Assembly (NCBI GenBank): GCA_041649575.1
Contig: JBAZMW010000001.1
Location: 30,001-62,000 of the forward strand
From: Patescibacteria group bacterium
GTDB taxonomy: Bacteria; Patescibacteriota; Patescibacteriia; 2-01-FULL-39-33
Direction of reading: 5' to 3'
DNA: 32,000 nt
Positions within the stretch are counted from its first letter, which is position 1; every line of letters starts with the position of its first letter. Made by a program: the position numbers and the translations under genes. Below are positions 937-23,500 of the stretch, piece after piece. Under the pieces are notes generated by a model that saw only the letters and a program-made list of their open reading frames with translations, searched no databases and had not been told where the DNA came from.

Positions 937-995
937 TGCTATTTTTGTCCAGAACTTCAGCTAAAGTTGAAAAAAACAAATTTTTATGGTAATTT
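937..995 (+). promoter_or_regulatory. Candidate leuS promoter region (two weak extended -10-like boxes)
   Basis: TGcTATTTT at 937-945 and TGgTAATTT at 987-995 lie in the 112-nt divergent intergenic region. Neither is a strong match. Confidence 0.2.
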
Positions 996-1020
996 TAAAA
1001 ACATAACGGTTAATTTTACT

Positions 1021-4000
1021 ATGTCTACTTATAAAGAGTTTTTAGATGGTGACGGTGAAAAGAAGTGGCAAGACTATTGGGAGCAAAAAAAATTATTTGC
1101 GGCCAATGATTTTGACGACCGGCCCAAGTATTATGCCTTGATAGAATTTCCTTATCCTTCGGCCGAGGGTTTGCACGTAGGTCATCCGCGCAGTTATACC
1201 GCGCTTGATATTGTGGCTAGAAAAAGACGGATGCAGGGTTTTAATGTGCTATACCCAATTGGTTTTGACGCTTTTGGACTACCGGCAGAAAATTTTGCTA
1301 TCAAAACCGGGACCCATCCGAAAATTCAAACCGATAAGAATATCGACAATTACCGTCGACAACTCAAATCGATCGGTTTTTCTTTTGATTGGGACAGGGA
1401 AGTCAATACGACCGATCCCAAGTATTACAAATGGACGCAGTGGATTTTTTTACAGCTGTTCAAACACGGCTTGGCTTACAAAGCGGAAGTGCCGATTAAT
1501 TTTTGTACCTCTTGCAAGGTAGGTTTAGCAAATGAGGAAGTGGTGGGTGGTAATTGCGAACGTTGTGGCGGTGAGGTGGTCAAAAAGATTAAAAGCCAGT
1601 GGATGCTAAAAATCACCGACTATGCCCAGCGGTTGGACAAAGATTTAGACCAGGTAGATTTTTTGGAAAAAATAAAAATTCAGCAACGGAATTGGATTGG
1701 CAAGAGCGAAGGAGCGGAAGTTGATTTTGCAATTAGTGGTAGTGAGGAAAAAATAAAAGTCTATACTACTCGGCCGGACACTTTGTTTGGCGCGACCTAC
1801 ATGGTGCTTTCTCCAGAGCACGAGCTGGTACAAAAATTAAAGGATAAAATTAGCAATTTTCAGGAGGTCGAAAATTATCTTAGTGAGGCGGCCAAGAAAT
1901 CTGATTTGGAACGCACTGAACTCAACAAAGAAAAAACCGGCGTGGAGTTAAAAGGAATTAAGGCGATAAACCCAGTTAATAATGAAGAGATTCCGATTTG
2001 GATTTCCGACTATGTGTTGGCCGGTTATGGCACGGGAGCGATTATGGCTGTGCCGGCACATGATGAGAGAGACTTTTTATTTGCTTTGAAATATAATTTG
2101 CCGATTATCCAAGTTGTTGAATCATCAGATAAACAAGATGTTATTAATATTAATATTCATGATGATGATCGGAGCGACACGGTTGAAAAACTAAGATTGT
2201 TGGCAATAGATAGTGAGCCAGTGGCACCGACTATACGGCGGTATCATTTTTCCACTGAAAAACTAAATTCTTTAATGGATATTTTAAAAGGTAATAAGGT
2301 GGGGAAAGAAGATGATTATAAGTTGATAAAAAAAGCAGTTAATTTTACTTTATATACAATCGAAGATAAGACGGAGATCGTTTTTACAAAAATATTTACC
2401 GGTGATGGAGTACATATAAATTCTGATTTTTTAAACGGCTTGGGTCTGACAGATTCCCTGGCCGAGATTATAAATTGGTTGGAAAAAAATAAATGTGGTA
2501 AAGGCGCTACTATTTACAAACTGCGTGACTGGGTATTTTCTCGCCAGCGTTATTGGGGCGAACCGATTCCTTTGGTCTTTTGCGAAAACTGCAAGAACAA
2601 GAAACAGAAGGCGTTGCTAATTCACGGTTTTGAGGGCACGGGTGATGGCAATTGGTTTGCTTGGATTAAACAAGAATTAGAGAAAGCTGGTTTTGAGGTA
2701 TTCAACCCGACGATGACCACCTCGGAGCATCCGGTGTTGGAGCAATGGTTTGAGGAATTAATGCCGTTTGTCGAGCAGATGGGCGAAGATGATATCATCG
2801 TCGGTCACAGCTTGGGCGCTAAGGCGGCTTTGCATTTGATAGAGAAAGCGGGCAAGAAGTTTAAGGCCTTGTATTTAGTGGCGCCGGTGCTAAATGCGGC
2901 TTCTGACAAGGAATATGATTTATTATCTGAAAAATGGCAGGGCTCGGACATTGATTTATTAAAAAAGTTTTCTTCGGAGCCGTATGATTTCAGAAAGATC
3001 AGTGATTTAGTAGAAAGTAAAAATGTTATTTTTTCCGATGATGATCCGTATATAAGAGTTGAGTCAAAAAATATTTTGCCGGCTGGTTGGAATAGACAAG
3101 TGTGGAATGGTTTTGGGCATTTTCAGAATAAAGAGATTTCCGAGTTGTTAAATTTAATTTCCAAGAGCAAAAATACCGGCTGGGTGGCTTTGCCGGAAAT
3201 AGAGTTGCCGTTGGTTTTGCCGGAAATAAAAGAATTTCAGGCTGGCGACGACGGCGAGTCGCCATTATCCAAAGAAACAAAATGGGTGGCAACCACTTGT
3301 CTGAAGTGTGGCGGATCGGCCAAGCGGGAGACCGACACTATGCCACAATGGGCGGGCAGCTCTTGGTATTTTTTGCGCTACATCGATCCGCAAAATAATG
3401 TGGCTTTTGCCGATGAGAAAAAGCTTAGTTATTGGACACCAATAGATTGGTATAATGGCGGCATGGAGCATACGACCCTACATTTGTTGTATTCTAGATT
3501 TTGGCACAAATTCTTGTTCGACTTAGGATATGCGCCGACAGCTGAGCCTTATGCCAAGCGTACTAGTCACGGCATGGTTTTGGGCGAGGGTAGCGAGAAG
3601 ATGAGTAAGAGCCGCGGCAATGTGGTCAATCCTGATCAGGTGATCAAGGATTGTGGCGCCGATACTCTAAGAATGTATGAGATGTTCATGGGCCCATTTG
3701 ATCAGGCGATTCCCTGGGACACTAAGGGCGTGCTGGGCGTGAGAAGGTTTTTAGAAAAAGTGTGGTTGTTTTTTGGCGATGAGAAAAATATTACTAAAGA
3801 GGCTGATGAGGAGCTAGAAAGAGTGTTAAATAAAACAATTAAAAAAGTAGGCGAGGATATTGAGACGATGCATTTTAATACCGCTGTTTCAGCGATGATG
3901 ATTCTCGTCAATAAAATAACGGAGAAGAAGTCGGCGACTAAAGAAATTTTGGAAAAATTTCTGATAATATTGTCGCCATTTGCACCGCATTTGACGGAAG

Positions 4001-4269
4001 AACTGTGGGGCCGACTAGGACATCAGAATAGTATCGCTTTGGAAAAGTGGCCGGCTTATGACAAAGTGTTAATAAAAGATGAGCAAGTGGAAATAGTGGT
4101 GCAAGTCAATGGTAAGGTAAGAGCTAAAATTTTGGTGTCGGCCGATATTTCGGAGGGTGAAGTAGTGGAGTTGGCTGGGCAGAATGAGAATGTTAAAAAA
4201 TATTTGGAAGGGCAGCAAATTAAGAAAACGGTCTTTGTGCCGGGCAAATTGATTAGTTTTGTGGTTTAA
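1021..4269 (+). CDS. leuS: Leucyl-tRNA synthetase (class I), unusually long because of two in-frame insertions
   Basis: ORF track gives 967..4269; I prefer the ATG at 1021 (MSTYKEF...) to the TTG at 967. Motifs present: HIGH-type HVGH (GLHVGHPRSY), ZN1 knuckle CTSC...CERCG, editing-domain TTRPDT and AVPAHDERD, RDWVFSRQRYWGEPIP, KMSKS at 3598-3612, and a LeuRS C-terminal domain. Confidence 0.95.
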   Translation: MSTYKEFLDGDGEKKWQDYWEQKKLFAANDFDDRPKYYALIEFPYPSAEGLHVGHPRSYTALDIVARKRRMQGFNVLYPIGFDAFGLPAENFAIKTGTHPKIQTDKNIDNYRRQLKSIGFSFDWDREVNTTDPKYYKWTQWIFLQLFKHGLAYKAEVPINFCTSCKVGLANEEVVGGNCERCGGEVVKKIKSQWMLKITDYAQRLDKDLDQVDFLEKIKIQQRNWIGKSEGAEVDFAISGSEEKIKVYTTRPDTLFGATYMVLSPEHELVQKLKDKISNFQEVENYLSEAAKKSDLERTELNKEKTGVELKGIKAINPVNNEEIPIWISDYVLAGYGTGAIMAVPAHDERDFLFALKYNLPIIQVVESSDKQDVININIHDDDRSDTVEKLRLLAIDSEPVAPTIRRYHFSTEKLNSLMDILKGNKVGKEDDYKLIKKAVNFTLYTIEDKTEIVFTKIFTGDGVHINSDFLNGLGLTDSLAEIINWLEKNKCGKGATIYKLRDWVFSRQRYWGEPIPLVFCENCKNKKQKALLIHGFEGTGDGNWFAWIKQELEKAGFEVFNPTMTTSEHPVLEQWFEELMPFVEQMGEDDIIVGHSLGAKAALHLIEKAGKKFKALYLVAPVLNAASDKEYDLLSEKWQGSDIDLLKKFSSEPYDFRKISDLVESKNVIFSDDDPYIRVESKNILPAGWNRQVWNGFGHFQNKEISELLNLISKSKNTGWVALPEIELPLVLPEIKEFQAGDDGESPLSKETKWVATTCLKCGGSAKRETDTMPQWAGSSWYFLRYIDPQNNVAFADEKKLSYWTPIDWYNGGMEHTTLHLLYSRFWHKFLFDLGYAPTAEPYAKRTSHGMVLGEGSEKMSKSRGNVVNPDQVIKDCGADTLRMYEMFMGPFDQAIPWDTKGVLGVRRFLEKVWLFFGDEKNITKEADEELERVLNKTIKKVGEDIETMHFNTAVSAMMILVNKITEKKSATKEILEKFLIILSPFAPHLTEELWGRLGHQNSIALEKWPAYDKVLIKDEQVEIVVQVNGKVRAKILVSADISEGEVVELAGQNENVKKYLEGQQIKKTVFVPGKLISFVV
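2593..3177 (+). other. Alpha/beta serine-hydrolase domain (YdeN/RBBP9-like) nested in-frame inside LeuRS
   Basis: About 195 extra residues lie between CENC (2581-2592) and the canonical GWVALPEIELPLVLPE...CLKCGG (CLKC at 3298-3309). They contain LLIHGFEG, the nucleophile elbow GHSLG (2803-2817), FSDDDPYI (Asp codons 3037-3045) and GFGHF (His 3118-3120), in Ser-Asp-His order. Confidence 0.7.
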
Positions 4270-4291
4270 AATTAAATTTTTTAAAAATAAA

Positions 4292-4323
4292 GCGCGTTTG
4301 CCATCCTCCGGTGGCAAACGCGC
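4292..4323. terminator. Bidirectional rho-independent terminator between convergent leuS and the island operon
   Basis: A perfect 12-bp stem, GCGCGTTTGCCA (4292-4303) / TGGCAAACGCGC (4312-4323), has an 8-nt loop. An A-rich run lies upstream (read as TTTATTTTTAA after the stem on the minus strand) and GTTTAAGTTTA lies downstream on the plus strand. Confidence 0.7.
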
Positions 4324-4359
4324 GTTTAAGTTTATAGTACAGGTTGGGTAAAGAGCTGG

Positions 4360-5415
4360 TCAGAACCGAAGCAGGAACTGAAGCTGGCCTTGATCTGGCG
4401 TCTTCGGCTCCAGCGACCAGTAGTAGCCGGCCTTGACTGACACGATGTCCCGATAGAGGAAGACCTCTGCGGTGGCCCCGATGCTGGTGTCGGTTTTGTC
4501 CGGGCTGTTTCTGGCTACCTCGGCAGAAGTCACCTGGCCGTTCTTGCCGACGGAGGTCACGATTTCCGTCCAGTACTTGGGCAGCTGTCGGTTATACATC
4601 GCGATTCCAGACAGTTTGGCTTGGCCGTCAAACAGCTCGCGGCCAAGCAGTAGGTAGCCGCCGACTTGATTGCTGATGTGGTCGTCGCTGTAGTTGGAGC
4701 CGTCCACCTCTACGCGGCAGAACCAGGGCTTGGGTCGCCACTCGAGGAAGCCGCCAAGTTTCAGGAAGTCGTCGCAGACCTGTCCGGTGATGCCCAAGCA
4801 GCCTTGATCCAGTTTGCGTTTGAGCATGAATGACGACTCCAGGCGATCAAACAGCTTGGAGCTGTCGAAGGCCTCACCTGATCGGCCGGTGACATCCCAT
4901 AGCGCGGTCCAGACATCGCTTTCCCAGCGTAGTTGGACACCAGGAGCGTAGCTGCTGAAGGGGATCGAGGCGGGAAAGAAGGGCAAGTCCCACTTGAATG
5001 GTCCGATGATGGGGTTGCCGAAGCCGCAGGCTAGCGTAAAAAGTCCGCCGCGTAGTTTCAGCCGGCCATCAAAGCCGATTGGCGTTTCCAGCCAGGCTTC
5101 GCGCAACCAATTGCCGCTGGTGTCTTCCTGCAAGTCGGCTAGCTCCAGTACCAGGCCGAAGGCCATCTGGCGGCCTTGGAGCTTGGTGTTGATGCGGGTC
5201 ATCTGCCAAACAGCGTCGGTGGCGTTGTCTTGTAGTTTGATGACCCCGCTAGTCCAGCCCCAGGTGGTCCAGGTCCAGTCGTCGTCCAGTTGAACGGGCG
5301 GAATCAGCCGGAGCTGTTCGGGCAGGTTCTGGGTTGGCGCTTTGGCGGCTTCCTCGGCCCAGACCGGTAGGGTTATTGTAACTGCCAAGATCGAAATCAT
5401 TCTCACGTACTTCAT
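4360..5415 (-). CDS. Secreted outer-membrane-beta-barrel-like protein, foreign composition (351 aa)
   Basis: ORF track. Signal peptide MKYVRMISILAVTITLPVWA/EE. Aromatic- and Gly-rich sequence with alternating hydrophobicity. The C-terminus LQFLLRF has hydrophobic residues at 0, -2, -4, -6 and a terminal Phe, like an OMP beta-signal. AAGGAG lies 7 nt upstream of the ATG (complement of 5423-5428). G/C-ending codons dominate (GAC, TTC, ATC, AAC, TAC). Confidence 0.7.
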   Translation of the reverse strand: MKYVRMISILAVTITLPVWAEEAAKAPTQNLPEQLRLIPPVQLDDDWTWTTWGWTSGVIKLQDNATDAVWQMTRINTKLQGRQMAFGLVLELADLQEDTSGNWLREAWLETPIGFDGRLKLRGGLFTLACGFGNPIIGPFKWDLPFFPASIPFSSYAPGVQLRWESDVWTALWDVTGRSGEAFDSSKLFDRLESSFMLKRKLDQGCLGITGQVCDDFLKLGGFLEWRPKPWFCRVEVDGSNYSDDHISNQVGGYLLLGRELFDGQAKLSGIAMYNRQLPKYWTEIVTSVGKNGQVTSAEVARNSPDKTDTSIGATAEVFLYRDIVSVKAGYYWSLEPKTPDQGQLQFLLRF

Positions 5416-5942
5416 GGCGCTTCTCCTTCTTTGGTTAAGGCTCGAGCTATAACTCTAACAACCCTCTGAGCCAGCATATATTCTGAGCAGCTAACCCAGA
5501 GGCTATCGGCAACGATGATGTTACTGCCATTTCCGACCAGCTGGAAGCTTAGTTGTATTCCTCCGTGCTGATATTGCGAGGTGCCAGTTATCAGCTTGGC
5601 ATTCACTGGCAAGGTTGTACGGTTTTCCCAGAGATCATTGGCCTCTTTGTCGTTGAGGTAGGAGACTTCGGCGTTGGCCTCTCTCAACTGATTGATGATT
5701 GCTGTCTCGACAGCTTTCGCCGTCTCATGTTGCGGGTCGCTCTCATTGCTGGCTCGGATTACCACCAAGAACTGCTGACCCTTTAGAGCGGCGAGTTGGC
5801 GTTCTTCTATTCTGGCCTGCTGGCAGTGGGCTTCATACAGGCAGTAGGCCAAATACCCGATACCCACCACAGCCGCGCTGGCTAGGATAGCGCCCAGTGT
5901 CGCAGCACTACCTAGCAGCATCCATTTGTATTTCTGGTTCAT
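5412..5942 (-). CDS. N-terminally membrane-anchored protein of unknown function (176 aa), first gene of the foreign island
   Basis: ORF track gives 5412..5978 from a GTG. I prefer the ATG at 5940-5942 (MNQKYKWMLLGSAATLGAILASAAVVGIGYLAY...) because GAGGGAG lies ~8-10 nt upstream. There is a single TM helix followed by a ~120-aa soluble domain. The stop overlaps the downstream start as ATGA (5412-5415), suggesting translational coupling. GC is high. Confidence 0.65.
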   Translation of the reverse strand: MNQKYKWMLLGSAATLGAILASAAVVGIGYLAYCLYEAHCQQARIEERQLAALKGQQFLVVIRASNESDPQHETAKAVETAIINQLREANAEVSYLNDKEANDLWENRTTLPVNAKLITGTSQYQHGGIQLSFQLVGNGSNIIVADSLWVSCSEYMLAQRVVRVIARALTKEGEAP

Positions 5943-6024
5943 GATTCTGTCTCTCCCTCGGGTTTTCAAGGTTCGCACCCTAGTTGTCTTTCCGAGACAA
6001 GTTTACCGCCATGGTAAACGGCTA

Positions 6025-6053
6025 ATTCTAACAAGGCGATAAAAAACTGTCAA
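6025..6053 (-). promoter_or_regulatory. Sigma70-type promoter for the island operon (TTGACA-17 nt-TAGAAT on minus strand)
   Basis: The complement of 6048-6053 is TTGACA and the complement of 6025-6030 is TAGAAT, with an exact 17-nt spacer (6031-6047). Confidence 0.5.
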
Positions 6054-6057
6054 TCTG

Positions 6058-6086
6058 TTGACGAAAATCGACAACTATGATATATT
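6058..6086 (+). promoter_or_regulatory. Sigma70-type promoter for the TrmB-family regulator gene (TTGACG-17 nt-TATATT)
   Basis: TTGACG at 6058-6063, a 17-nt spacer, and TATATT at 6081-6086, 27 nt upstream of the ATG at 6114. Its -35 box lies back-to-back, 4 bp from the -35 of the minus-strand promoter. Confidence 0.5.
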
Positions 6087-6113
6087 GAGTATAGAAAATT
6101 TTAAATTAGATCT

Positions 6114-6917
6114 ATGTTGCAAGATATCCTAAAAAATTTAGACATTCCTGAAACCACTAGTCGGGTTTATCTTCGGCTTTTGGAAAACGGCGCCAGTTCC
6201 GCCCGGCAACTGGCGGAAAATCTTAATATTCCCAGGCCGTCAATTTATGACAATTTAAGAGTTTTAATTAGCTTAGGACTGGTGACGGAAATTGACCAAG
6301 AAAATAAAAAGTTATTCAAAGTAGATGATATAAAAAACCTCTCACATTTACTGATTGGCAAAATTTCTAATTTGCAAAAGCAGGAGAAGGAGCTTAAAGG
6401 AATTATTCCCAAACTAAGTGTTTCCAACGATTATTTTGAACCAAAAATTAAATTCTATAGCGGGCCGGACGGCGTACGGCGAGCGGTTAATGATATTTTG
6501 TGGTATGAAGATATTATAACTTTGTGCACCTGGCCTATCAGTGAAATGCTCGAGGTCTTGGGCGCGGATTGGCTGGCCGAGCATAATAAAAAAAGAATCC
6601 GCAAAAAAATTGCTCTGCGCACCATTTGGCCATCAGATAAAGCTGTTAAATTCAAGCAGTATCCTTTTTTGGGTGTCGGCAAGGAGTTCTTGCGCGAGAT
6701 TCGACTGGCGCCCAAGGGCATGAGTTGGAATATGGGTTATTGGCTTTACGCCGACAAGGTTTCTTTTATTTCTTCGCGTAAAGAGAGTTTTGGTTTTACA
6801 GTCACCAGTCGCGATTTTACCGAGCTGATAAAATCGCAGTTTGAACTGGTCTGGCCGCTGTGCAAAAAAGTGGTGGTCGACCCCAAAGACACAGCCTCGT
6901 TTTTGAAATATATCTAA
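6114..6917 (+). CDS. TrmB-family HTH transcriptional regulator (267 aa)
   Basis: ORF track. The N-terminal winged-helix segment ETTSRVYLRLLENGASSARQLAENLNIPRPSIYDNLRVLISLGLVTE matches the TrmB HTH pattern. The size is typical for TrmB with a C-terminal effector domain. Confidence 0.8.
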   Translation: MLQDILKNLDIPETTSRVYLRLLENGASSARQLAENLNIPRPSIYDNLRVLISLGLVTEIDQENKKLFKVDDIKNLSHLLIGKISNLQKQEKELKGIIPKLSVSNDYFEPKIKFYSGPDGVRRAVNDILWYEDIITLCTWPISEMLEVLGADWLAEHNKKRIRKKIALRTIWPSDKAVKFKQYPFLGVGKEFLREIRLAPKGMSWNMGYWLYADKVSFISSRKESFGFTVTSRDFTELIKSQFELVWPLCKKVVVDPKDTASFLKYI

Positions 6918-6940
6918 AACTTTATTTTTCAGACCGGTTT

Positions 6941-6949
6941 TGCTATAAT
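6941..6949 (+). promoter_or_regulatory. Extended -10 promoter TGCTATAAT for lemA
   Basis: An exact TGnTATAAT lies 31 nt upstream of the ATG at 6981. There is no good -35. Confidence 0.45.
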
Positions 6950-6980
6950 TCATCTCAATATTAATAAATTAAAAAAATCT

Positions 6981-7556
6981 ATGAAAAAAGGGTTGATAAT
7001 TTTGGTTGTCGTAATTGTCGTGTTGGTGGCGGTAGTCGGCTATTTGTGGTCGGCTTACAATAAAATGGTTGTCGCCAACGAATCAATCGACGGCCAGTGG
7101 GCGCAAGTAGAGACACAATATCAAAGGCGTTTGGATTTGATTCCTAATTTAGTGGAATCGGTCAAGGGCATTATGACTCAAGAACAGCAAGTTTTCGGCG
7201 ATTTGGCCGAGGCCAGGACCAAATATGCCGGCGCGGTGACTGTAGATCAAAAGGCGGCGGCGGCCACTCAAGTGGAAAGCGCTTTGGGACGACTGCTGGT
7301 GATAGTGGAAAATTACCCGCAGCTCAAATCGGCAGAAAATGTGCAAACACTGATGGTTCAGCTGGAGGGGACGGAAAATCGGGTGAGCGTGGAGCGTGGA
7401 CGATTCAATGATTTGGTAAAAAATTACAACATCTTAATCAAACGTATTCCAGAAAAATGGCTGGCCGGCATGTTCGGTTTTGGCGAGCGGCAATATTTTG
7501 AAGCAGCAGCCGGCGCCGAGAATGCGCCAAGCGTAAACTTAAATATCAATCAATAA
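6981..7556 (+). CDS. lemA: LemA family protein (191 aa)
   Basis: ORF track. An N-terminal TM helix is followed by YNKMVVANESIDGQWAQVETQYQRRLDLIPNLVESVKG...ENYPQLKS...LEGTENRVSVERGRFND, the classic LemA pattern. Confidence 0.9.
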   Translation: MKKGLIILVVVIVVLVAVVGYLWSAYNKMVVANESIDGQWAQVETQYQRRLDLIPNLVESVKGIMTQEQQVFGDLAEARTKYAGAVTVDQKAAAATQVESALGRLLVIVENYPQLKSAENVQTLMVQLEGTENRVSVERGRFNDLVKNYNILIKRIPEKWLAGMFGFGERQYFEAAAGAENAPSVNLNINQ

Positions 7557-7604: not shown

Positions 7605-8498
7605 ATGCAAAAAGTATTTCTAAGAATAGGTTTAGTAGCTGTGATTTTGGCCTTTTTAACTTTGCCGGCCAAGGCCTATTATGATTTGGGCCGGCCGGCG
7701 GGATATGTTAATGATTACGCCGGAGTTTTAAGCGCGGCCGACAAAACGGCGCTGGAAAACAAATTGACGCAGTTCGAAGCGGATTCTTCCAATGAGATTG
7801 CCATAGCGACAATCAAGTCGCTCCAAGGCGATACGATAGAGAATTTTGCGGTGAAGTTATTCGAGTCTTGGAAGATCGGCAAAGAAGACAAGGATAACGG
7901 CGTCTTAATTTTGGTGGCGGTAGAGGACAGAAAAATGCGGGTTGAAGTTGGCTATGGCCTGGAAGGAGCGCTGACCGACGCCCAAAGTTATTGGGTAATC
8001 AACAACGTCATGAAGCCGGCTTTCAGAGAAAGTAACTATTACGGAGGTCTTAATGGAGCCGTAGATAAAATAGTTGACGCCACCAAGGGCGAATATGTAC
8101 CCAGCGAAACTCCAAAAAATTCTGAAGAGGGGGGTTTGTTAAATATCGTTTTTGGCTTGATCTGGCCTTTCGCTTTTATTTTGATATTTTTAGCCAGTAT
8201 TTTGTCGAGGAGCAAATCGTGGTGGGCCGGAGGAATAATTGGCTTAGTTATAGGGGTGGTGGTCGGATTGTTCGTCGGTTTCATTTGGGGTGTGGTTGGC
8301 GTTTTGATCCTGACGCCCCTGGGCCTGTTGTTTGATTTTTTTGTTTCCAAACAATATCAAAAGGGCAAAGCTTCGGGACATTATCCCTGGTGGATTGGGG
8401 GGCGCGGCGGATTTGGCGGCGGCGGTAGCGGCGGCGGCGGTTTTGGCGGATTTGGCGGCGGCAGTTCGGGTGGTGGCGGAGCGAGCGGTGGGTGGTAA
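7605..8498 (+). CDS. TPM-domain (YgcG-like) membrane protein with a Gly-rich C-terminal tail (297 aa)
   Basis: ORF track. A signal peptide is followed by YVNDYAGVLS...SNEIAIATIKSLQGDTIENFAVKLFESWKIGKEDKDNGVLILVAVEDRKMRVEVGYGLEGALTD (TPM pattern), then C-terminal TM helices and a GGxGG tail. Pairing with LemA is common. Confidence 0.85.
   Translation: MQKVFLRIGLVAVILAFLTLPAKAYYDLGRPAGYVNDYAGVLSAADKTALENKLTQFEADSSNEIAIATIKSLQGDTIENFAVKLFESWKIGKEDKDNGVLILVAVEDRKMRVEVGYGLEGALTDAQSYWVINNVMKPAFRESNYYGGLNGAVDKIVDATKGEYVPSETPKNSEEGGLLNIVFGLIWPFAFILIFLASILSRSKSWWAGGIIGLVIGVVVGLFVGFIWGVVGVLILTPLGLLFDFFVSKQYQKGKASGHYPWWIGGRGGFGGGGSGGGGFGGFGGGSSGGGGASGGW
8397..8495 (+). repeat. GGC/GGT-rich low-complexity tract encoding the poly-Gly tail of the TPM protein
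   Basis: Encodes GGRGGFGGGGSGGGGFGGFGGGSSGGGGASGGW. The DNA is reiterated ggcgg units, which also create spurious ORFs in other frames. Confidence 0.7.
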
Positions 8499-8503
8499 AA
8501 AAT

Positions 8504-8899
8504 ATGGAAAACAAATACAAAGGCGTAATAATAGAAGAAAGCCTAGAAGACAAAACTGTTTTAGGAAGTGTCAGTATTTTGGATACGAAAATAGAAGAAG
8601 TAACTAAAAAACATAGAACTCCATGGGTTACTAAGTGGACTTTGCACACTGTAGAAATACCCGAGGATAGAGTTGAGATTATTACAGGACAAATCAGTGA
8701 ATCTTTAGATAAAAACCACGCCTGGTATGCCGATTTTAAAAATAGAGAGCATCATTACATTGTTTTCCGTGGTAAGGTTTTCTTTGTTGACCGATACAGT
8801 AAAGAACAATATGACGAGGCAAAGAAATATGGAATTTCATTGGGTATTCCGGAATATCAGGTTGATTTTCATCCAGAGGTGAAAGAGTGGGAGAGATAG
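8504..8899 (+). CDS. Hypothetical protein (131 aa)
   Basis: ORF track gives 8492..8899 from a GTG inside the TPM stop region. The ATG at 8504 (MENKYKGVIIEE...) lies 5 nt after the TPM stop. I recognised no family. Confidence 0.55.
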   Translation: MENKYKGVIIEESLEDKTVLGSVSILDTKIEEVTKKHRTPWVTKWTLHTVEIPEDRVEIITGQISESLDKNHAWYADFKNREHHYIVFRGKVFFVDRYSKEQYDEAKKYGISLGIPEYQVDFHPEVKEWER

Positions 8900-8933
8900 G
8901 GTTTACATAATTATTTAGATCAAATACTACGGA

Positions 8934-8963
8934 GACGCGTGCAAGCGCGTCCCTGTATTTTTT
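8934..8963 (+). terminator. Rho-independent terminator after the lemA-TPM-ORF131 unit
   Basis: Stem GACGCG (8934-8939) / CGCGTC (8946-8951) with a 6-nt loop, followed by a T6 run at 8958-8963. Confidence 0.55.
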
Positions 8964-8973
8964 GGCTGATTTT

Positions 8974-8982
8974 TGCTATAAT
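8974..8982 (+). promoter_or_regulatory. Extended -10 promoter TGCTATAAT for the GIY-YIG/FemAB/MFS/DUF1624/rsmA operon
   Basis: An exact TGnTATAAT lies immediately after the terminator and ~50 nt upstream of the ATG at 9032. Confidence 0.45.
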
Positions 8983-9031
8983 TTATCCTGTTAGACAAAA
9001 TTTTAAATTTTTTATTTGTCTTGCAATATGT

Positions 9032-9286
9032 ATGTATTATGTCTATATTTTGGAATCTATAAAAGATAAAAAATTCTATACTGGCTTTACTAAAAATTTA
9101 AAATTTAGATTTGAGCAACATCAAAAAGGATTGGTTGACTCTACTAAGAATAGGAAACCGTTTAAATTAATTTACTATGAGGCTTGTCTTAACCAGCAGG
9201 ATGCTACTAGGAGAGAAAAGTACCTAAAAACGATTTATGGCAAAAGATACCTCAAGAATCGGCTCGAATCTTATCTAACAGGATGA
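9032..9286 (+). CDS. Small stand-alone GIY-YIG nuclease family protein (84 aa)
   Basis: ORF track starts at 8939, but that extension runs through the terminator and promoter. The ATG at 9032 gives MYYVYILESIKDKKFYTGFTKNLKFRFEQHQKG...REKYLK, a GIY-YIG pattern (YVYIL...YTGFT...R...H). Confidence 0.8.
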   Translation: MYYVYILESIKDKKFYTGFTKNLKFRFEQHQKGLVDSTKNRKPFKLIYYEACLNQQDATRREKYLKTIYGKRYLKNRLESYLTG

Positions 9287-14566: not shown

Positions 14567-17500
14567 ATGAATCCAGGAGAAGGAACAAAAAAGATAACGA
14601 AAAATCTATTTAACAAGGTGATAGTGGTTGGTTTTTTGTTAAGTTTTTTTATTCCAGCTTTGGTTATAGCGCAGGAGGTTGTTCCAGGAATTAGCGGCGT
14701 TAATGTGGCGGATGTGCACGATGAAAATGCTTTTAGGGTGGCTACGGAAGGAGGGGGAGATGCTGTGATTACTTGCAATAATTTTGTCGCTGGCGGTTTG
14801 GCAACATCCGGAGATATAGCCGCTTTAATTAAATGTATAGAAAGCGGGACTAAGGCGCAAAACAAAACGGTTGACAAGAATACCCTCAAGCAACTCAAGG
14901 CCTTGGAACAAAAGCAGCAGCGTGAAGAATTGTTCAGTAAAATGAAGGATGAGCTGAAAAAGAGCATGGCCGGCGCTTTTAAGACCATGCTACGGCAATT
15001 TTCCAAACAATTGGCTTATGACACGGCCGTTTGGGTAGCTTCTGGCGGCAAGGGGCAACAGCCGCTGTTTATGACCGAGGGTATCGGCGCTTATTTGCGA
15101 AATCAGCTAGATAATGCCCTGGGTGTGTTTTTGGACGAACTGGGCCGCTATTATGGCGTGGATGTCTGTACGCCAAATTTCCAGATTAGAGCGCTCCTGC
15201 CCGGTTATTTGGGCAGACCACAGGTGAGTGTTCGCTGTTCTTTTACTAAAATGATCAGTAATTGGCAGAGTGCGGCCCAAAATGCCAGCTTTGCCGTGGA
15301 GTACAGAAGATTTTTGAGGCCAGGAGAAAATGATATTTCTTCGCTACTAATGATTAAAACCGGTTTGAGCAACAAACTAGACCAAGAATTAAGAGATAGC
15401 GTTTTAAATGTTTTATCGAAAGATGGCTGGAAGGATGTTAAAGATTTTGCCGGCTGGGTTTTGACTCCGGGCACCATGGTGCGCAAGGCCACCGAAAACG
15501 CCATTGATCCCCAAAATACTTCGATAGCGGACTACACCTATACCGATACACTCTGGGATTTTATCGAAACTTTTTTGAACACGCTGACGGGAAAACTCTT
15601 AGAAAATTTAATGACTGGCTTTTTCAGCTCCGGCGGCAATACCCAAAATTTCACTACCGGTAATTCAAGCTCCAGTTTATTTAATCCTTTGGCGCAACCG
15701 TTTAGCGAGGGCCAAGAAGGAGCACAGGAAAGATTTCTGAGTCTGGTGGAGGGAAGTTTGCAGGTGGGCGGTGTTTACGATATTTTGAACAAACTGACCC
15801 AATGCCTGGATTCCAGTAAAAGCAATTTAGGGCCGACAGACTGTGTTATTGATCAGGCCCTGGCTCAAGCCATAAGAGAAAAAAAATTAGTCAAAGATTT
15901 ATCCGCGGATATTTTAAATCGTCAGTTCGCTCCCTCTATCTCGGCCAACATCAATCCGCAGACAGTTTTTACCTTAAGAAATATTGTTATCTTGAGAAAA
16001 TATCGAATCGTGCCTGTTGGCTGGGAAGTCGCCGCCAAACTGGTCAATGAAAAAGCCAAACAAATTTATACTTTGCGTCAGTTGATGGAGTGTTATAACG
16101 GCTGTGATCGTTTTGGCAAAGAAGAGGATTTTTGCGGCAATCCGGCCGTGGAAGACACCAGTAGCTGGTGCCGAGGACTGGTTGATCCCAACTGGGTCTT
16201 AAAGGCGCCGGAACTATTCTGCCGGCGGGAAGGATACGGGATCGAAAGCGGCGCCATTGATTCCCAGAACAGTGTCAGTCGGGATAAATATTGCGCCGAC
16301 GAACAGCAATGCATCAAAGAAGATGAAAAAGGCAATTGTTTGGCCTATGGTTATTGCACCAAAGAACGCCGGACTTGGGATTTTAATTCTTCCACCTGCG
16401 ACCCGAAATTCAACACTTGCTTTAATTTTAAATCGCGAACGGGAGCTGCCAACGCTTATTTGGCCAACACCCTTGATTATAGGGATTGCGACGCTCAAGT
16501 GGCTGGTTGTCGTTGGCTGGCTACGGCTTTGAATCCGGTTAGTAATTATTGGTTGAATCTAACCTATAAAACGAACGAGCTGGGCAAACCCAAGGAAGTC
16601 TTAAAGACCTGCAATAATCCTCTGGGTTGCGAGGTGACGGGAGCCAGCGCAGCTGCCGCTGTGACTTATGGCCACAACATTAGCCCCGATGCCAAAACGA
16701 TCCTTTCCCAGCCCTGCAATAAAAGCGCCGGCTGTTCTTACGAAACCAGTAAGTGCACCATTCCTAACGGTGGCGTCACTTGTTCGCCAATAAAAGCAGC
16801 TTGTGACGGCCAAAATAATATTTTGGCCGGTTATAATGGCAATTTTGCCAAATGCGCCTCTTGGAATGCGGAAAAGTGGGAAGAGGGCTGGGGCGGCTCG
16901 GAGAATAATCACCACGCTTGCGTTACTGGTGTTGGCGTGACCGGCAGTGGCATCAAAGACGACAAGGCCCTGGCCAGCTATACCCTGGGCCAGCAGGTAA
17001 GCTCGGCCTTAAGAGACATCTCGGTTGAGCCAAATAAAAAATACATTCTGACTTTTGAAGCCAAGAAAAGCGCTCTGGATGCTTATGGTGGAGTTACTAG
17101 GGGTTCGGTTGCTGTCAAAGTGGAGTTTACCGATACCAGCGGCAAGAAGACCGATCAAGGAGTTGTCTTGGCGGCCGATGATTTGAGCGATACTGGTTAT
17201 CGGACTTTTACTATTGGCAATATCAATAACGGTAATAATGACAAGTTTACCATCAAAGTGACGACCAACGCCGGTTCTTATGGCAGTTTCTATTTTGATG
17301 AATTTATTTTGCGGGAGGTGACGGAGAACTGTTTTGAGACCAACCTGGTTTTGACTAATGGCGTTCAAACGGAAGACGACAGCAACAAGGAAATTTATTT
17401 TGACCGCGACATTCAGTCTTGCGACGCCAAAGACGAGGGCTGTAGCCAATTTATTCGCACCAAGGCCGGGTTGGGCAGCAACTTAATACCCAACAGCGGT

Positions 17501-20500
17501 TTTGAGATTGATGCTGGTGGCGATAATAAACCGGATGGCTGGGTAGAGAGAGGGCTGACCAATATTAGTCTGGACACCAACGATAAATATAAAGCCAAGA
17601 TAGTTTATAGCGCCGAAGGATATGATAAATATCCACTGATACCGGTAGAGGCCGGCGAATATTATGCCATTTCCTTTGATGCCGCTCAAGCTATTAGTGG
17701 CAACAATGACGAAGCTGATTTGGAAATGATTTTTTTGAACAAGGAAGCGGACGCGATTATTGGGGCAACCGGTATAAAAATCGACAAGACAAATTGCGCC
17801 CAGACCGGAGACAACACCATTACTTTGAGAAATTTGCCTGCAAATATGAATATGCAGAGGCAGTCTTGCTACTTTTTGGTGCCGGCCGGGGCCAGAGTTA
17901 TGGGTTATAAGCTGTTTTCGGCCACCGCCAGTGGAGTTAATTTTATTGACAACATAAAATTGGAAAAAATAAATTATTTCAGCTTGAACGCCTCGGTTTA
18001 TACACCCTATACGCCTTCGGAACGACCAGTAAGCCAGTTGGCTTTTGTCAAAAAGGCTCCTGCTTATTACGGCTGTTATAAAACCGGCAGTCTTTGGCCG
18101 CAGAGCGAGACTGAATTGGAAAGAGTTTTGCTTGGCCGCAGTGCGGCCTGCGCTAATTTTGCCAGCGTTTGTATCAGAGATGAAGTTGGTTGCGAACGTT
18201 ATAGTCCGCTAAATAAGGATCCGGCAGTGCCGGGCAAAATCAACGCGCTTAATATCTGCCCGGCGGAGTGTGTCGGCTACCAGCTGTATCGCAAAGAGAA
18301 AACTTATTTCGAAAGCGTAAGCTACGAAAAATTCATTGCCGACAAAAAACCGCAGTATTGCTCGGCCGCTTACGCCGGTTGTGATGAGTTTACCAATTTA
18401 GACGAAGTGGCCAAGGGCGGCGAGAGCAGGGAATACTATTCGCAACTGCGCGTTTGTCAGCAACCGGCCGCCGACGCCAGCGATGCCACTTATTACACCT
18501 GGGAGGGCAGCGACACCACCGGCTATCAGCTAAAAACTTATCAGTTGAAAAAAAGTCAGACGGACAGCTTTGATACTAATGCTCCCTGCACTGTTTTGGA
18601 TTATCCGGCCAGTTTAAATGGCAAGAACCAGTGTAATGACCTGAAAGATGACGGAACCAACAGCGTTGGTTCGGTTTCATTGCCGGCCGGCTACAGTAGT
18701 CTAAAGGGTTATTTAACGGTTTTACAGGGTTATACCGATACCAGTAGCAGCGATCCGAATTTACCCACTATTGTTAACTCGGGAATTTTGGACGAGTTGC
18801 ACGAGTTTGGCATCTGCGCCAAACAAGAGCTCAACGGCATCGTTTACAATCGAGGCACGATGGATGATGCCAGTGACGATATTTACATTTATGCCAATGC
18901 CGATTGCCGCGAGTTTTATGATGGCAGCGGCCAAGTCCATTATCGGCTGCTTTCCAAGGCAATCTTTTCTTCCAGCGAGTGCCATCCTTATCGTCGCAGC
19001 CAGGTTCAGACCGATACGGCCGAAGCCCAAGCCGATTGCCGAAATTCCCAAGGCTATTGGAATGCTAACGGAGAGTGTATTTATATGGCGATACCCGGCC
19101 AGGGAAAGACTTGCCCTGCCAGCGCCAAGGGTTGCCGTCAATATGTCGGCAATCAAGGCAACAACGTCCGTTTGAAGTTTTTTGATAATTTTGAGAGTAA
19201 TCTGGGCGCCTGGCAAGGCGGCGGTGTTCTGGCCATGGAAGCCACTAATCCGGGAGGCAAATCATTAAAGAAGGCGGGCGGTGGCGAGATTAGCCGGCCG
19301 GTTGCCACAGTCAAAAATAAGGCTTATATCTTAAGTTTTTGGGCCAAGGCTTCGGCCGACGCCGTTGTGCTGGATGCAATTAAATTTAAAGGAGCGGAAA
19401 ATAACTCCGACAATTATTTTGCCGAAAGCGACAGCGACGCCGACAATATCCCGCAAGCAGTTTTAAATACCACTTGGCAGAAATATGACTTAGGTCCGGT
19501 TTTTGTCACTTGGGACGAAAGAGCCGACGAAGCGCTAGAAATCAAAGCGCCGGCCGGAGTCGATGTCTTTTTTGACAACATAATTCTAAAAGAAGTTCAG
19601 CAAAACGTTTACCTGATCGCCAATACTTGGTTTACGCCTTTTGCTTGCGATAACATACTGGAAACACCCTTTGGGTCAGCCGGTGATTCCAATAATCCGA
19701 CTCGTGACAGCCAAGGAGAGATGCTCGGCTGTCAGGCTTACAATGATCGATCCGATCAACCCTGGTATTTGAAATCATTTTCCAGATTATGCCGCGAAGA
19801 CGCTGTGGGTTGCGAGGCCTTAATTAATACCTTTAACTCCGATTCTCCTTGGGGCAAGGAATTTAATAACGAAGACTTGGAAACGCATGATGACGTGACG
19901 GTCCAGAGCGATCAGGCGGTCTATTTGGTCAATGACAATCAATATGCTTGTCAGGCCGAGGATAAGGGTTGCACGGCTTTCGGCTTGCCCAGCGTCACCA
20001 AGTATGACGAAACAATAGGTTACAGCACTGTGTATTTGGAAAACGTTCCTGACCGTTATAGCTTTGATCTGTGCCGTTACCAAAATTTATGGTGCGAGGA
20101 ATTCTCCAGTGCCGATGCCCGCGAACTGTCTTATTTTAAGGATCCCAGAGACAAGCTGTGCGAGTACACCGCGATTTCCGGCAAGAATTACAGCAACTGG
20201 TATGCCAAAGGGACTAATAATCCCTGTCTGACCACCGCCACGCAAACGATTGGTCTGGGTTCGGCCGATGAGAAGCGGCAGCCAATCGGCTGGTATGACA
20301 ATAAAACAGAGACGGAGGTGGCGGATTATAAGGGTTGGGCCGGCCTGTGTCCGGCCGAGCAGAGCTCTTGCACCGAATATATCGATCCGCTGACCGAGGT
20401 TTATGAGGGTCTCTTTAATAAGGAGGAAAACAGTTTCAAAAACTGTGCCGGCGAAACTCCAGGAGCCGAGCAAAACAATTGCGGTTATTATGTGTTAGAA

Positions 20501-23500
20501 CTGGAGGACGAAAATCTTTATACCATCTCGATCAAGAGAACCAGCTCCGGCAATGTCGCCACCCAGCTAGTTTGCGATAATGAAATTTGGTCGCCGGATA
20601 AGAGTTTGGATGTGTCTGGCTCTAGTAAATTAATTTTAAACAGAGACAACGTCGGCGGCGATAAGCAGGTTAGCGGTAGATTTTATCTGGAAAGTACCGG
20701 CGCCGGCCAGGCCAGAGTCAATTGTCGCATTTACGATCCTGGTTTTGACGGCGAAGAGATCGAAGTGGTTAAGGCCGGGGTTTATTATCAATTGGCCAAA
20801 GCGGTCAATCGCGCCGCCTGCAACGGTTTGGTGGATATAGATAGCGGTTGCGTTTTGTTCAATGAGAGAGGAGAGATGAATTACTCCAAGCAGGGCGTGG
20901 AGAGAGTCCGCGATTATCTTGACTTTGACGCCGATGAAACTTTCAATTTGCAAATCAAAGCTGCCAGTAAAAATCCACAGCCGCCATTTTCAGCGATTTT
21001 GCCAGGCCAAAAAAATTCTAATTCGATCATTAAAGTGTCGCCAGACAGGGAATGCAGCGGCTGGCTGTTTTGCACCACTTACGAAAAAGCCAATCCCGAA
21101 GATACGGATTTGGCCTTTGGCAGTCAGGATAAGTGTTTGGAAATAGGCCTCTGCAGTCGCTTTGATAGCAAGGGAAATTGTTTGAAATATTCGCTGGGCA
21201 AAAAAGAAGCCCTGTCTACCAGCACCCCCGATTTTCAAAACTTAACGGGATACTCCATCAGCGGTTATTACCCGACAGATCTGATGGAACAAATCGGCAA
21301 TGCGGCCAACTTGCCCAATGGTAATTTTGAATCAACTTACTCGGGAACCAAAGAACCTCTTGGCTGGTATATCGGCGGCAGTCATTATGATTCGGACAAC
21401 ATCAAACAGCCAGGACAAGTCAGCGGCTGGGGCGATTATCGTTTTAGCATCGAACGGGATTCTGCCAATCGTAGGGAAGGCTCTGGTTATTTAAAATTAA
21501 ACGGAGCCTATGAGGCCGAATCGGAACTGGTAGATGTTTTCCCCAATGTTGATTACACTATTTCGGCCTGGGTAAACACGCTTAACCTGCAGCCCACTTC
21601 GACGCAAGCGGAAATTCTGGTCAGGGAGCTAAACGCCAGTGGCAATACTATAAAAAATTCCAACTGCTCGGCCGTGGCCGGCTGTTATGAAGTCAAAATC
21701 AATGGCATCTCCTGGTCTTTGTATGGCGGACTGAAATTAAAAGCCGGCCAGCCCTGGCTTAGAGTCAACCAGCGGATAAAAACTATGCCGGAAACTTCAA
21801 GATTGCAAATTAAACTGTTAAATTTTCTTAGTAGCCAGGATTATGTAAATTGTCGCGACCAGAACGCAGCCACCTATTGCAAAACGGGGGGCTACACTTT
21901 CTTTGACGATTTACAGATAAACGCCGCCCTGAAAGTTAATGACAAAGAGAACATAAAAAGAGACTGTCGCGCTTATCCCGAGCAGGATTCATTGGCCTGT
22001 CGGTATTTCAAAGATAATCAGTTTTTTTATGGCTGGTCCGGCTACTGCCTGACTTATGATCCGCTAAACTCTCGTTCCTGTCTGCAGTGGTGGCCGGTCG
22101 ACAATATAAAAGGGGAAGTGGAGGACGAGGTTTCCGGTTATGACAACAGAGTTCCTTTGTATTATTGTCTGTTAACCGAATTTGAAAGAGAATTGAAAGA
22201 AGTAAGTACCGATGTGATACAGGTTCAGGAAGCGGTCGGCGGCGCTATGCCGGTTGCCTCTCAGGCCCAAGGAGTGGCGGGAACAATTTTGGATTTTTTA
22301 GAATTCATTCTTAATATTGTGGGCGATGTCTTTCTGGGCGGAACTAATAGCGGAACAATCATAACCGACCTGATAGCCGGCGGCTTGCAGACTTTTGCCG
22401 GCATTGATGTCGGGTCGAGCGGCTCTTCGTCTTCAAAATCGAATATGCCTCAATGCGAAAGACTAAGCTTTGAGGATTTGAAATTCGATCCGACCACAAA
22501 AAGCTTGAATTCCTGGGTTGCCAGTATCACCGGGAATAATTCCAGAAACGTCGATGCCAAGTATCTGAAGCCGATAAGTTTGTATAATGTAGTCTATATC
22601 ACCCTGGATACCGGCTATGGCGGCGGCGGCGGCGTGGAATGCGAAGATCAGGGCGGGCATAATTTACAAAAAGTAAAATACACGGAAAATTTTATTCTTA
22701 GAGGTCTGTATAAATTGGTTGTCGGCGGTACTAGCAGTATAACTACCGAAGATTATGGTTATGTTTCTCCTGGCGATGGTACGGCCGGCCTGGATTATAG
22801 CGACAAGACTTATTGCGCGGGTTTTGTGACCTTTTTTGACAAAGACGAGAACGGTCATCGCAAAGGAGAAATAAAAAACATGATAGCCTGCGCTCAGGAT
22901 ACAGGGGAGTACACCCATCAGGACACCTTTAACTTTAAGTTTAAGATAGGCTACATGACAGACAAGCAGGGCCCGGCTTGCCAAATATTGGCTCAAGTGG
23001 TGACTCCGATGGGCAATAACAAGGCTTGGAGCAGAAGGGTGGCCAAGGGCAGTATTTTCACTATGCCTGGTCTTGGCACTTCGTATAATTCCGATTATCC
23101 TCCTTATGGCGCGGTGGTGCCGCCGGAGCCGGCGCATTATCCCGAGGTTTGGGATACCGACTTAACTCAAAAAGATAAGCAAAAATTATATCATTCCGCG
23201 CCGGAACTGGAAAGCCAAAAGCCCTATCAGGCCAGGGCGGGAGAAGTGTTTAGTTGCGTCAATTATGTCAATGATTTGCCAGGTTATGATGGAACAATGG
23301 GAGCGTTAAGAAGTATTTTTGGAGTCGCTTCCAGCTGGGCTTATAAGGTGCCTTGTTTTGAGGGCTGCCTGAAAGGCATCAGAACCGACAATGCCTGGCA
23401 GGGACTAACTTCCATAACCCAGTCGGTGCTGTGTGTTTGGAGACATTGCACCAACGCCTGCAATTTCATCGGCCGTTGCAGTCAGTCGGGCAGTGTTTGT

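Follow-up and report, generated by a model that had tools for sequence, protein, structure and literature searches.

A two-gene operon for a predicted porin-type beta-barrel in a Patescibacteria genome without detected outer-membrane machinery

We analyzed a 32,000-nucleotide (nt) stretch of a Patescibacteria genome (hereafter, the window; NCBI GenBank assembly GCA_041649575.1, contig JBAZMW010000001.1), which corresponds to C1:30001-62000 of the 920,072-bp genome G000. The genome is in five contigs, is 97.9% complete, and has a GC content of 44.8%. Judged from the neighboring genes, its size, and related genomes of 0.6-1.4 Mb, it is a small genome of the Patescibacteria, or candidate phyla radiation (CPR). 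On the reverse strand of the window, between the leucyl-tRNA synthetase gene, leuS, and a gene for a TrmB-type regulator, lies a GC-rich pair of genes (positions 4360-5942; hereafter, the island). The first gene (5412-5942) encodes a membrane-anchored orphan protein of 176 amino acids (aa), and the second (4360-5415) an exported protein of 351 aa that is predicted to form a porin-fold beta-barrel. The original prediction, made from the sequence alone, had taken both genes for a foreign insertion acquired from a higher-GC diderm, possibly the host. Our analysis agrees with it on the barrel, but the barrel looks like a long-kept CPR gene family, rather than fresh foreign DNA.

The 351-aa protein starts with a Sec-type signal peptide (MKYVRMISILAVTITLPVWA/EE, with the predicted cut after VWA), which leaves ~330 mature residues, and it ends in LQFLLRF. 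No Pfam match was obtained, even at E <= 1, and there was none in NCBIfam, PHROGs, PADLOC, or a sequence-profile search of the PDB. AlphaFold2 (AF2), supplied with a 17-sequence alignment, returned an 18-strand all-beta model (pLDDT 74, pTM 0.70), for which the top Foldseek matches were OmpU, OprP/OprO, OmpC/F, PorB, and OmpM (E 4e-11 to 1e-8, TM-score ~0.6). The model had 176 PDB matches at E <= 0.001, and all 50 of those listed are 16-stranded porins, either native or engineered; sequence identity to the matched structures is 7-13%. An exhaustive profile-free search recovered 79 family clusters, mostly of 260-360 aa, nearly all of which have a signal peptide and a C-terminal ...xRxQxRF that ends in Phe. 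Profile-based word-index searches for further relatives recovered few new ones, a metagenome scan re-found only the P0002 contig, and there was no match in phage records, plasmid records, or IMG/VR contigs. Weak matches to Porin_O_P (PF07396) were seen in 11 of 37 relatives (best E 7e-5), and the window protein did not reach the gathering threshold of PF07396. By sequence, the family is only remotely similar to OprO/OprP-type porins. The open reading frame (ORF) and its translation, the model, the structural matches, and the 79-cluster family all point to an exported porin-type barrel, modeled with 16-18 strands and a beta-signal-like last strand. An outer-membrane-protein-like barrel with a VWA/EE signal peptide and a terminal Phe is what the original prediction had proposed. 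Of the features expected of a porin, the protein has the closed all-beta barrel of 16-18 strands and the Sec signal peptide with a C-terminal aromatic residue; machinery for residence in an outer membrane and assembly by BamA/Omp85 was not found in the 97.9%-complete genome.

The best-conserved motif of the family (consensus, TPxPFxLETVxYP) falls at residues 133-154, between strands 5 and 6, and is absent from the model. In porins, this is where the constriction loop is located, and the conserved loop probably folds inward in the same way. A group of longer relatives (P0028, P0034, P0037, P0040, P0041, P0043, P0045, P0049, and P0075; 460-490 aa) carries an additional N-terminal domain (~190 aa, with hydrophobic helices) in fusion with the barrel, an odd arrangement for a protein that has to cross a periplasm. 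A comparison of this domain with the 414-469-aa partner protein described below indicated that the two are unrelated.

The first gene of the island has an alternative GTG start at 5978 and is preceded by the Shine-Dalgarno site GAGGGAG (5953-5959), 10 nt ahead of the ATG at 5942. The site of the barrel gene, AAGGAG (5423-5428), lies 7 nt ahead of the ATG at 5415, and the 3′ end of the 16S rRNA, CCUCCUU, contains the matching CCUCC. The two genes overlap as ATGA at 5412-5415, as originally described; with an overlap of 4 nt and no above-threshold Rfam match, there is no intergenic two-hairpin or ribozyme element between them. The 176-aa protein was correctly foreseen as membrane-anchored with a small domain, in that it has one N-terminal membrane helix and an alpha/beta domain of ~130 aa. 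It matched no Pfam, NCBIfam, PHROG, or PADLOC family, and had no homologue among the 33 other genomes of its GTDB family. Its AF2 model is of low confidence (pLDDT 58), and a PelC-like fold suggested for it was sub-threshold and unusable (E ~0.01, TM-score ~0.3, on that low-confidence model). The protein as a shortened form of the 414-469-aa partner was ruled out (hhalign probability 0.1%). The gene, as read from its sequence, appears to be a lineage-specific orphan that is translationally coupled to the barrel gene by the ATGA overlap.

The island differs sharply in composition from its surroundings. In 400-nt windows, GC is 0.53-0.60 over positions 4401-6000, compared with 0.35-0.49 in the flanks. 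The coding block has a GC of 0.566, against a genome mean of 0.443 (standard deviation, sd, 0.042) over 1583-nt windows, and the island value is reached by 0.94% of genome windows of the same size. When GC at third codon positions (GC3) was computed, the 351-aa gene was a clear outlier, with the fifth-highest value among the 774 ORFs (0.749, against a mean of 0.49 and an sd of 0.09 for the genome), whereas the 176-aa gene showed a moderate shift only (0.58, about rank 98). Codon counts in the 351-aa gene are 18 GAC to 6 GAT, 13 TTC to 5 TTT, 13 ATC to 2 ATT, 8 AAC to 2 AAT, and 7 TAC to 2 TAT, and CTG, at 42%, is its main Leu codon. The fraction of C-ending codons for Asp, Phe, Ile, Asn, and Tyr is 0.72-0.87 in this gene, compared with 0.22-0.39 in low-GC3 genes. 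A Shine-Dalgarno core of at least 5 nt at the longest-ORF start was present in one of the 15 other complete ORFs of at least 100 aa in the window. The high GC and the strong Shine-Dalgarno sites, rare elsewhere in the window, had been noticed in the original prediction and were borne out; the switch in two-fold codons that it ascribed to the whole island holds for the 351-aa gene, and usage in the 176-aa gene is mixed.

On its 3′ side, the island ends at a GC-rich intrinsic terminator hairpin (4292-4323), which has stems of 12-14 bp and T-runs on both strands, is bidirectional, and terminates both leuS on the forward strand and the island operon on the reverse strand. The sharing of a terminator by the island and its flanking gene was, therefore, correctly recognized from the sequence. 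A hairpin terminator also lies directly 3′ of the barrel gene at the related loci L002, L003, and L005 and in genome G016, and we conclude that the terminator travels with the barrel gene. At the other end, the 5′ leader of the operon (5943-6024, reverse strand) has a 7-bp hairpin at 6001-6019 and contains the box GAACCTTGAAAAC at 5962-5974. Both are conserved at L002, and the box is also kept at L003, despite the differing downstream gene. The fold of the leader was not significant when compared with shuffles (z -1.4), no second copy of the leader was found elsewhere in the genome, and an Rfam scan of 3500-7500 gave only a spurious, sub-threshold match to IRES_Bip.

Upstream of the leader is a strong sigma-70-type promoter on the reverse strand (TTGACA-17-TG-TAGAAT, 6025-6053), which is TG-extended, agrees with the consensus at 11 of 12 positions, and is nearly invariant at L002 and L003. 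Back-to-back with it is the trmB promoter on the forward strand (TTGACG-17-TATATT, 6058-6086), the -35 box of which overlaps an imperfect palindrome, GTTGTCG-ATTTT-CGTCAAC (6057-6075). This palindrome lies between the divergent promoters, 18 of its 19 bases are invariant in three related loci, and its sequence and position make it a probable TrmB operator. The divergent gene itself (6114-6917, forward strand) encodes a winged-helix regulator of the TrmB type (PF01978, E 9.1e-14; 51.5 bits, cut-off 25.6), is of native composition (GC3 0.46), and has no Shine-Dalgarno site. Against NCBIfam equivalogs, the window TrmB scored 15-30 bits (cut-offs 500-650), as the N-terminal 70 residues alone align, and the C-terminal sugar-binding effector domain of the archaeal TrmB/TrmBL1 equivalogs was not found in it. 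Elsewhere in the genome, two of the three other TrmB paralogues also adjoin GC3-rich runs.

The closest homologues of the barrel (55%, 43%, and 37% identity) are on metagenome contigs, two of which also encode a TrmB orthologue 79-81% identical to that of the window; these are L002 and L003. At all three TrmB-linked loci the barrel is the last gene of the operon, and the first gene differs: it is the 176-aa orphan in the window, a flavin-reductase-like gene (269 aa) at L003, and a 174-aa gene with an 89-aa gene at L002. A comparison of synteny in relatives had been proposed, and on the trmB side the order of TrmB, promoter, gene or genes, and barrel is kept in these two relatives' contigs, with a change of first gene. 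The same order in at least three independent assemblies also shows that the TrmB-side junction of the island is not a chimeric join. Neither an integrase, nor a tRNA, nor a flanking repeat was found among the island's neighbors and flanks, in agreement with the original description.

We found no Omp85, POTRA, LpxC, OEP/TolC, OmpH/Skp, or secretin in the genome, using searches in which the positive controls were detected as expected, and Omp85 was found in none of the 34 genomes of the GTDB family. The tentative suggestion that the island sits in an outer-membrane-less context is, thus, consistent with every marker sought. Single-chain porin barrels are thought to depend on the Omp85/beta-barrel assembly machinery (BAM) and on an outer membrane. 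The few CPR that have been characterized are treated as monoderm (PMC8871954; bioRxiv 10.1101/2021.05.31.446380), and the clade to which the CPR belong has been proposed to have lost its porins along with the outer membrane (bioRxiv 10.1101/2021.05.31.446380). Our literature searches gave no description of a porin, or of any beta-barrel outer-membrane protein, from true CPR.

The barrel is patchily distributed. Within the GTDB family, 6 of 34 genomes have it, each from a different genus; these are the window genome and 5 of the 33 others. Across the phylum, it was found in 7 of 401 genomes. Of the six genomes sampled from a second CPR family, four have a homologue, and further copies are present in one metagenome-assembled genome (MAG) of Candidatus Vogelbacteria and on one 802-kb contig. 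A tree of 101 sequences placed the Vogelbacteria copy and those on the TrmB-linked contigs together with every copy from the window's family, in a clade of 38 (99% SH-aLRT support). Every member of this clade with visible context is in a small-genome, CPR-type setting. The barrels of the second CPR family form a separate clade. Members in a diderm context (306 aa; beside TonB-dependent receptors and cytochromes) form a third, distant cluster, at ~22% identity, and in the diderm phylum that holds them a strong match was seen in one of 301 sampled genomes, which was the index genome. The search for a donor proposed in the original prediction turned up only these distant diderm members; the nearest homologues are in other Patescibacteria.

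Across the CPR, the family is deeply diverged (25-55% identity), but the high GC3 recurs. In every CPR genome with a copy, the GC3 of the barrel is 0.53-0.75, and mostly at least 0.6, against backgrounds of 0.3-0.5; compared with its neighbors it is 0.65 versus ~0.33 in G016, 0.67 versus ~0.30 in G011, and 0.63 versus ~0.38 on the 802-kb contig. In contrast, the diderm copies have a GC3 slightly below their own genome background. At the TrmB-linked locus, pairs of trmB genes are saturated at synonymous sites (the NG86 estimate fails) and use the same codon at 44-52% of conserved residues. The barrels beside them have a GC3 of 0.64-0.75 (0.64 for the copies in the two relatives), compared with 0.40-0.46 for trmB. 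Donor composition that has yet to ameliorate cannot, therefore, explain the GC3 of the barrel. Either it is maintained by selection or a biased process, or the gene has been repeatedly replaced from a GC-rich pool. Among CPR barrels with a complete start, all have a signal peptide and all but one (L032) end in Phe. Their nonsynonymous divergence (dN, 0.29-0.53) is well below the synonymous (dS, at least 1.4), with a dN/dS of roughly 0.15-0.2. The retention of signal peptide and terminal Phe, together with the low dN, speaks for long purifying selection on these barrels.

Beyond the TrmB-linked loci, the barrel has a different companion. In G015, G016, G013, G153, the Vogelbacteria MAG, and the 802-kb contig, it lies 3′ of the gene for a homologous protein of 414-469 aa, in which several segments are hydrophobic and a PRGPPA motif is present at the C-terminal end; this protein matched no known family. 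The two genes overlap in three of these cases, by ATGA in G016 and G013, and the pairing is conserved across CPR families. The window genome has a second such pair at C5:49403-51685, in which a partner-like gene (443 aa) is followed by a Phe-terminated barrel (C5:49403-50284; 293 aa, ...GLGLRFEF), and a third exported barrel-like protein is encoded at C5:54128-55336 (402 aa, ...AETAWKF; faint DUF1302 similarity). The C5 partner-like gene and both C5 barrels are GC3-rich, and they are outside the barrel family of the window. The pair of partner and barrel occupies a different chromosomal site in each genus. In G016 (L019; G016:C2 9281-11553), it lies antisense between fusA and a small ORF ahead of tuf, in the str operon region, and this fusA-tuf spot is uninterrupted in the window genome. 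From the differing sites and the clean insertion into the str operon, we conclude that the module moves between sites; as a means of movement, no integrase, repeat, or phage or plasmid match was found.

The original prediction regarded the island as a foreign insertion. Its unusual composition stands, but the island is not unique. In the genome, 67 of 774 ORFs (6.3% of bases), in 53 short runs, have a GC3 above 0.62. Among these GC3-rich ORFs, a Shine-Dalgarno core of at least 5 nt is found at the longest-ORF start in 51%, and at some start within 40 codons in 82%; by the same two counts, the values for ORFs with a GC3 below 0.55 are 1.8% and 4.8%. The barrel island is, consequently, one of about 50 GC3-rich, Shine-Dalgarno-bearing islets that form a second gene class. 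Translational selection for high expression was considered as the cause of the pattern and is ruled out by the ribosomal protein genes and EF-Tu, which lack a Shine-Dalgarno site and have a GC3 of 0.33-0.50, in line with the 0.3-0.5 of native genes at large. There is no enrichment of the GC3-rich class in secreted or membrane proteins (N-terminal hydrophobic stretch in 34%, versus 31%), and in the literature we found no report of a two-class Shine-Dalgarno/GC3 pattern. A longer run of GC3-rich genes with Shine-Dalgarno sites (C4:43366-56892), divergent from the TrmB paralogue at C4:58036-58824, was seen in the same genome, and the 16S rRNA gene (C4:48787-50269) lies within it.

The interpretation towards which we lean, with moderate confidence, is that the island is a small, regulator-controlled barrel operon, drawn from a maintained CPR gene pool, that provides a BAM-independent pore for solute uptake. 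TrmB would repress the operon and its own gene through the shared palindrome, and a signal, perhaps a sugar or contact with a host, would release the repression. The barrel would be exported by Sec and then inserted without BAM into a membrane, which may be either the unusual envelope of the cell itself or the membrane of the host at the contact zone. There it would act as a diffusion pore, through which a metabolically dependent cell could take up host-derived solutes, and the 176-aa product, or the polytopic partner in other genomes, might hold, gate, or help to insert it. On this view, a pool of genes would pass among CPR genomes and keep up its GC-rich make-up, which would not be the scar of a fresh diderm transfer. 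A bolder version, which we put forward as speculation and think rather doubtful, is that some Patescibacteria place Omp85-independent porin barrels in the host envelope or in their own lipid-scavenged membrane, with the partner as a new insertase or anchor and with the GC3-rich class as an "interaction" regulon kept distinct by selection. If so, Omp85-independent barrels would open a solute path between parasite and host.

Several points weigh against the proposal of a BAM-independent uptake pore. In an energized cytoplasmic membrane, a porin would do harm, and a cell that kept one in its own energized membrane would have to control it tightly; the presence of the regulator is in keeping with this. 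For the host, no route is known by which a barrel could enter the outer membrane from the outside. A pore function and insertion without BAM are suggested by the modeled fold and by context, and the confidence of the model is moderate (pLDDT 74), with the conserved loop at residues 133-154 outside it. What precedes the barrel in the window is not its usual partner but an orphan gene with no relation to it. In other genera, the genes headed by TrmB orthologues (48-54% identity) are not GC-rich, which limits the TrmB link to close relatives. Of the 38 barrels in the clade, 27 have no context label; ~10 of these match exactly, or are sister to, copies from CPR genomes or from the 802-kb contig, and GC-rich non-CPR donors could be among the rest. 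Finally, the proposal does not account for what holds GC3 high in this gene class.

Recent acquisition of both genes from a higher-GC diderm, perhaps the host, as a passenger without a role that still has the composition of its donor, would account for the sharp difference in GC, GC3, codon usage, and Shine-Dalgarno sites between the island and its neighbors. It could also draw on the distant family members beside TonB-dependent receptors and cytochromes in diderm genomes, and on the first operon gene, which differs between close relatives and so attests to real turnover at the locus. We nevertheless consider it improbable, as the closest relatives of the barrel are all in CPR genomes and in one supported clade, while the diderm members are only ~22% identical and are not GC-rich in their own genomes. 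Moreover, the same TrmB-linked slot is occupied in two relatives in which trmB is saturated and the barrel GC3 is still 0.64-0.75, and a passenger would not be expected to show a dN well below dS, with the signal peptide kept throughout the CPR copies and the terminal Phe absent from a single one. An assembly chimera or binning contamination, which the abrupt change of composition at both island edges might suggest, is hardly credible. Independent assemblies from ENA, Logan, and JGI share the order of TrmB, promoter, gene, and barrel, the long contigs of the five-contig genome contain similar islets throughout, and in five other genomes the homologue has core CPR genes on both sides.

Alternatively, these CPR might have an unrecognized outer layer or second membrane, built without Omp85, which holds the barrels, with the partner as an assembly or anchoring factor. 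Such a layer would suit a genome that encodes at least three exported, Phe-ending, barrel-like proteins (one in the window, and those at C5:49403-50284 and C5:54128-55336), one of the C5 barrels again lying behind a partner-like gene, as well as the conservation of the partner-barrel pairing across CPR families and the fusion of some family members to an N-terminal helical membrane domain. We think it unlikely, given that no LpxC, OEP, Skp, POTRA, or secretin was found in the genome and that a barrel present in 6 of 34 family genomes and 7 of 401 across the phylum fits poorly with an essential envelope component; it would also go against the treatment of characterized CPR as monoderm (PMC8871954; bioRxiv 10.1101/2021.05.31.446380). 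Another explanation, which we think very improbable, is that the barrel is a vestige of a diderm CPR ancestor that a few lineages retained for a new use once their outer membrane had gone. In its favor, the clade holding the CPR has been proposed to have lost the outer membrane and porins (bioRxiv 10.1101/2021.05.31.446380), and within the CPR the family is deeply diverged (25-55% identity). Vertical descent would not, however, lead one to expect a different chromosomal site in each genus, including the clean insertion into the str operon, or the patchy distribution, and the composition and Shine-Dalgarno signals are those of the accessory class and not of native genes.

Among known systems, the barrel most resembles OprP/OprO (PF07396) and the 16-strand porins OmpU, OmpC, OmpF, and PorB, which are its best structural matches and with which it shares export as a single-chain barrel, a C-terminal aromatic strand, and a conserved loop that probably folds inward. 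It differs from them in that no BAM, lipopolysaccharide, or other outer-membrane marker was found in its organism, and in that its gene is coupled to that of a membrane-anchored partner. The OmpM porins of diderm Terrabacteria (Veillonella OmpM1) are also porin barrels, from the Terrabacteria side, and appear among the fold matches at ranks 22-23; the window barrel lacks their SLH domain, and the TM-score of ~0.5 is below that of proteobacterial porins. At the level of the locus, the promoter-proximal slot that changes between close relatives and the compositionally distinct genes recall integron/CALIN arrays, but no attC-like repeat, repeated flank, or nearby integrase or recombinase was seen at the island.

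What is new here is that a porin-fold family with a conserved membrane partner resides in lineages that lack BAM. That the barrels there are conserved, under purifying selection, exported, and paired with a partner points either to a BAM-independent route of insertion or to a protein made for the membrane of another cell, and both directions bear on how ultra-small episymbionts feed on their hosts. The split of the genome into two gene classes shows, in addition, that foreign-looking composition can persist through saturating divergence, which calls for caution before such islets are called recent transfers.

In addition to LeuRS and the TrmB-type regulator, the window neighbors of the island encode LemA, a TPM-domain protein, a GIY-YIG protein, FemAB, an MFS transporter, and a giant protein of 3865 aa. 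In the leucyl-tRNA synthetase (967-4269, 1100 aa), residues 550-718 form an inserted serine-hydrolase/alpha-beta-hydrolase domain (PF06821, E 6e-17), which separates the editing from the anticodon-binding domain. The giant protein is encoded by a single ORF (14567-26164) of native composition (GC3 0.52) without a Shine-Dalgarno site, and is followed by a 1063-aa ORF. In a related genome, the gene lists of loci L042 and L043 (G015:C46:36000-52000 and 57000-73000) are exact mirror images, and the two halves of the 109,074-bp contig are symmetric; it is probably a palindromic assembly artifact, so that the two TrmB copies on it are probably one. Lastly, two very AT-rich small ORFs at 8492-9286 of the window (GC3 0.31 and 0.27), the second of which encodes the GIY-YIG nuclease-domain protein, form a low-GC islet that is opposite in composition to the barrel island.

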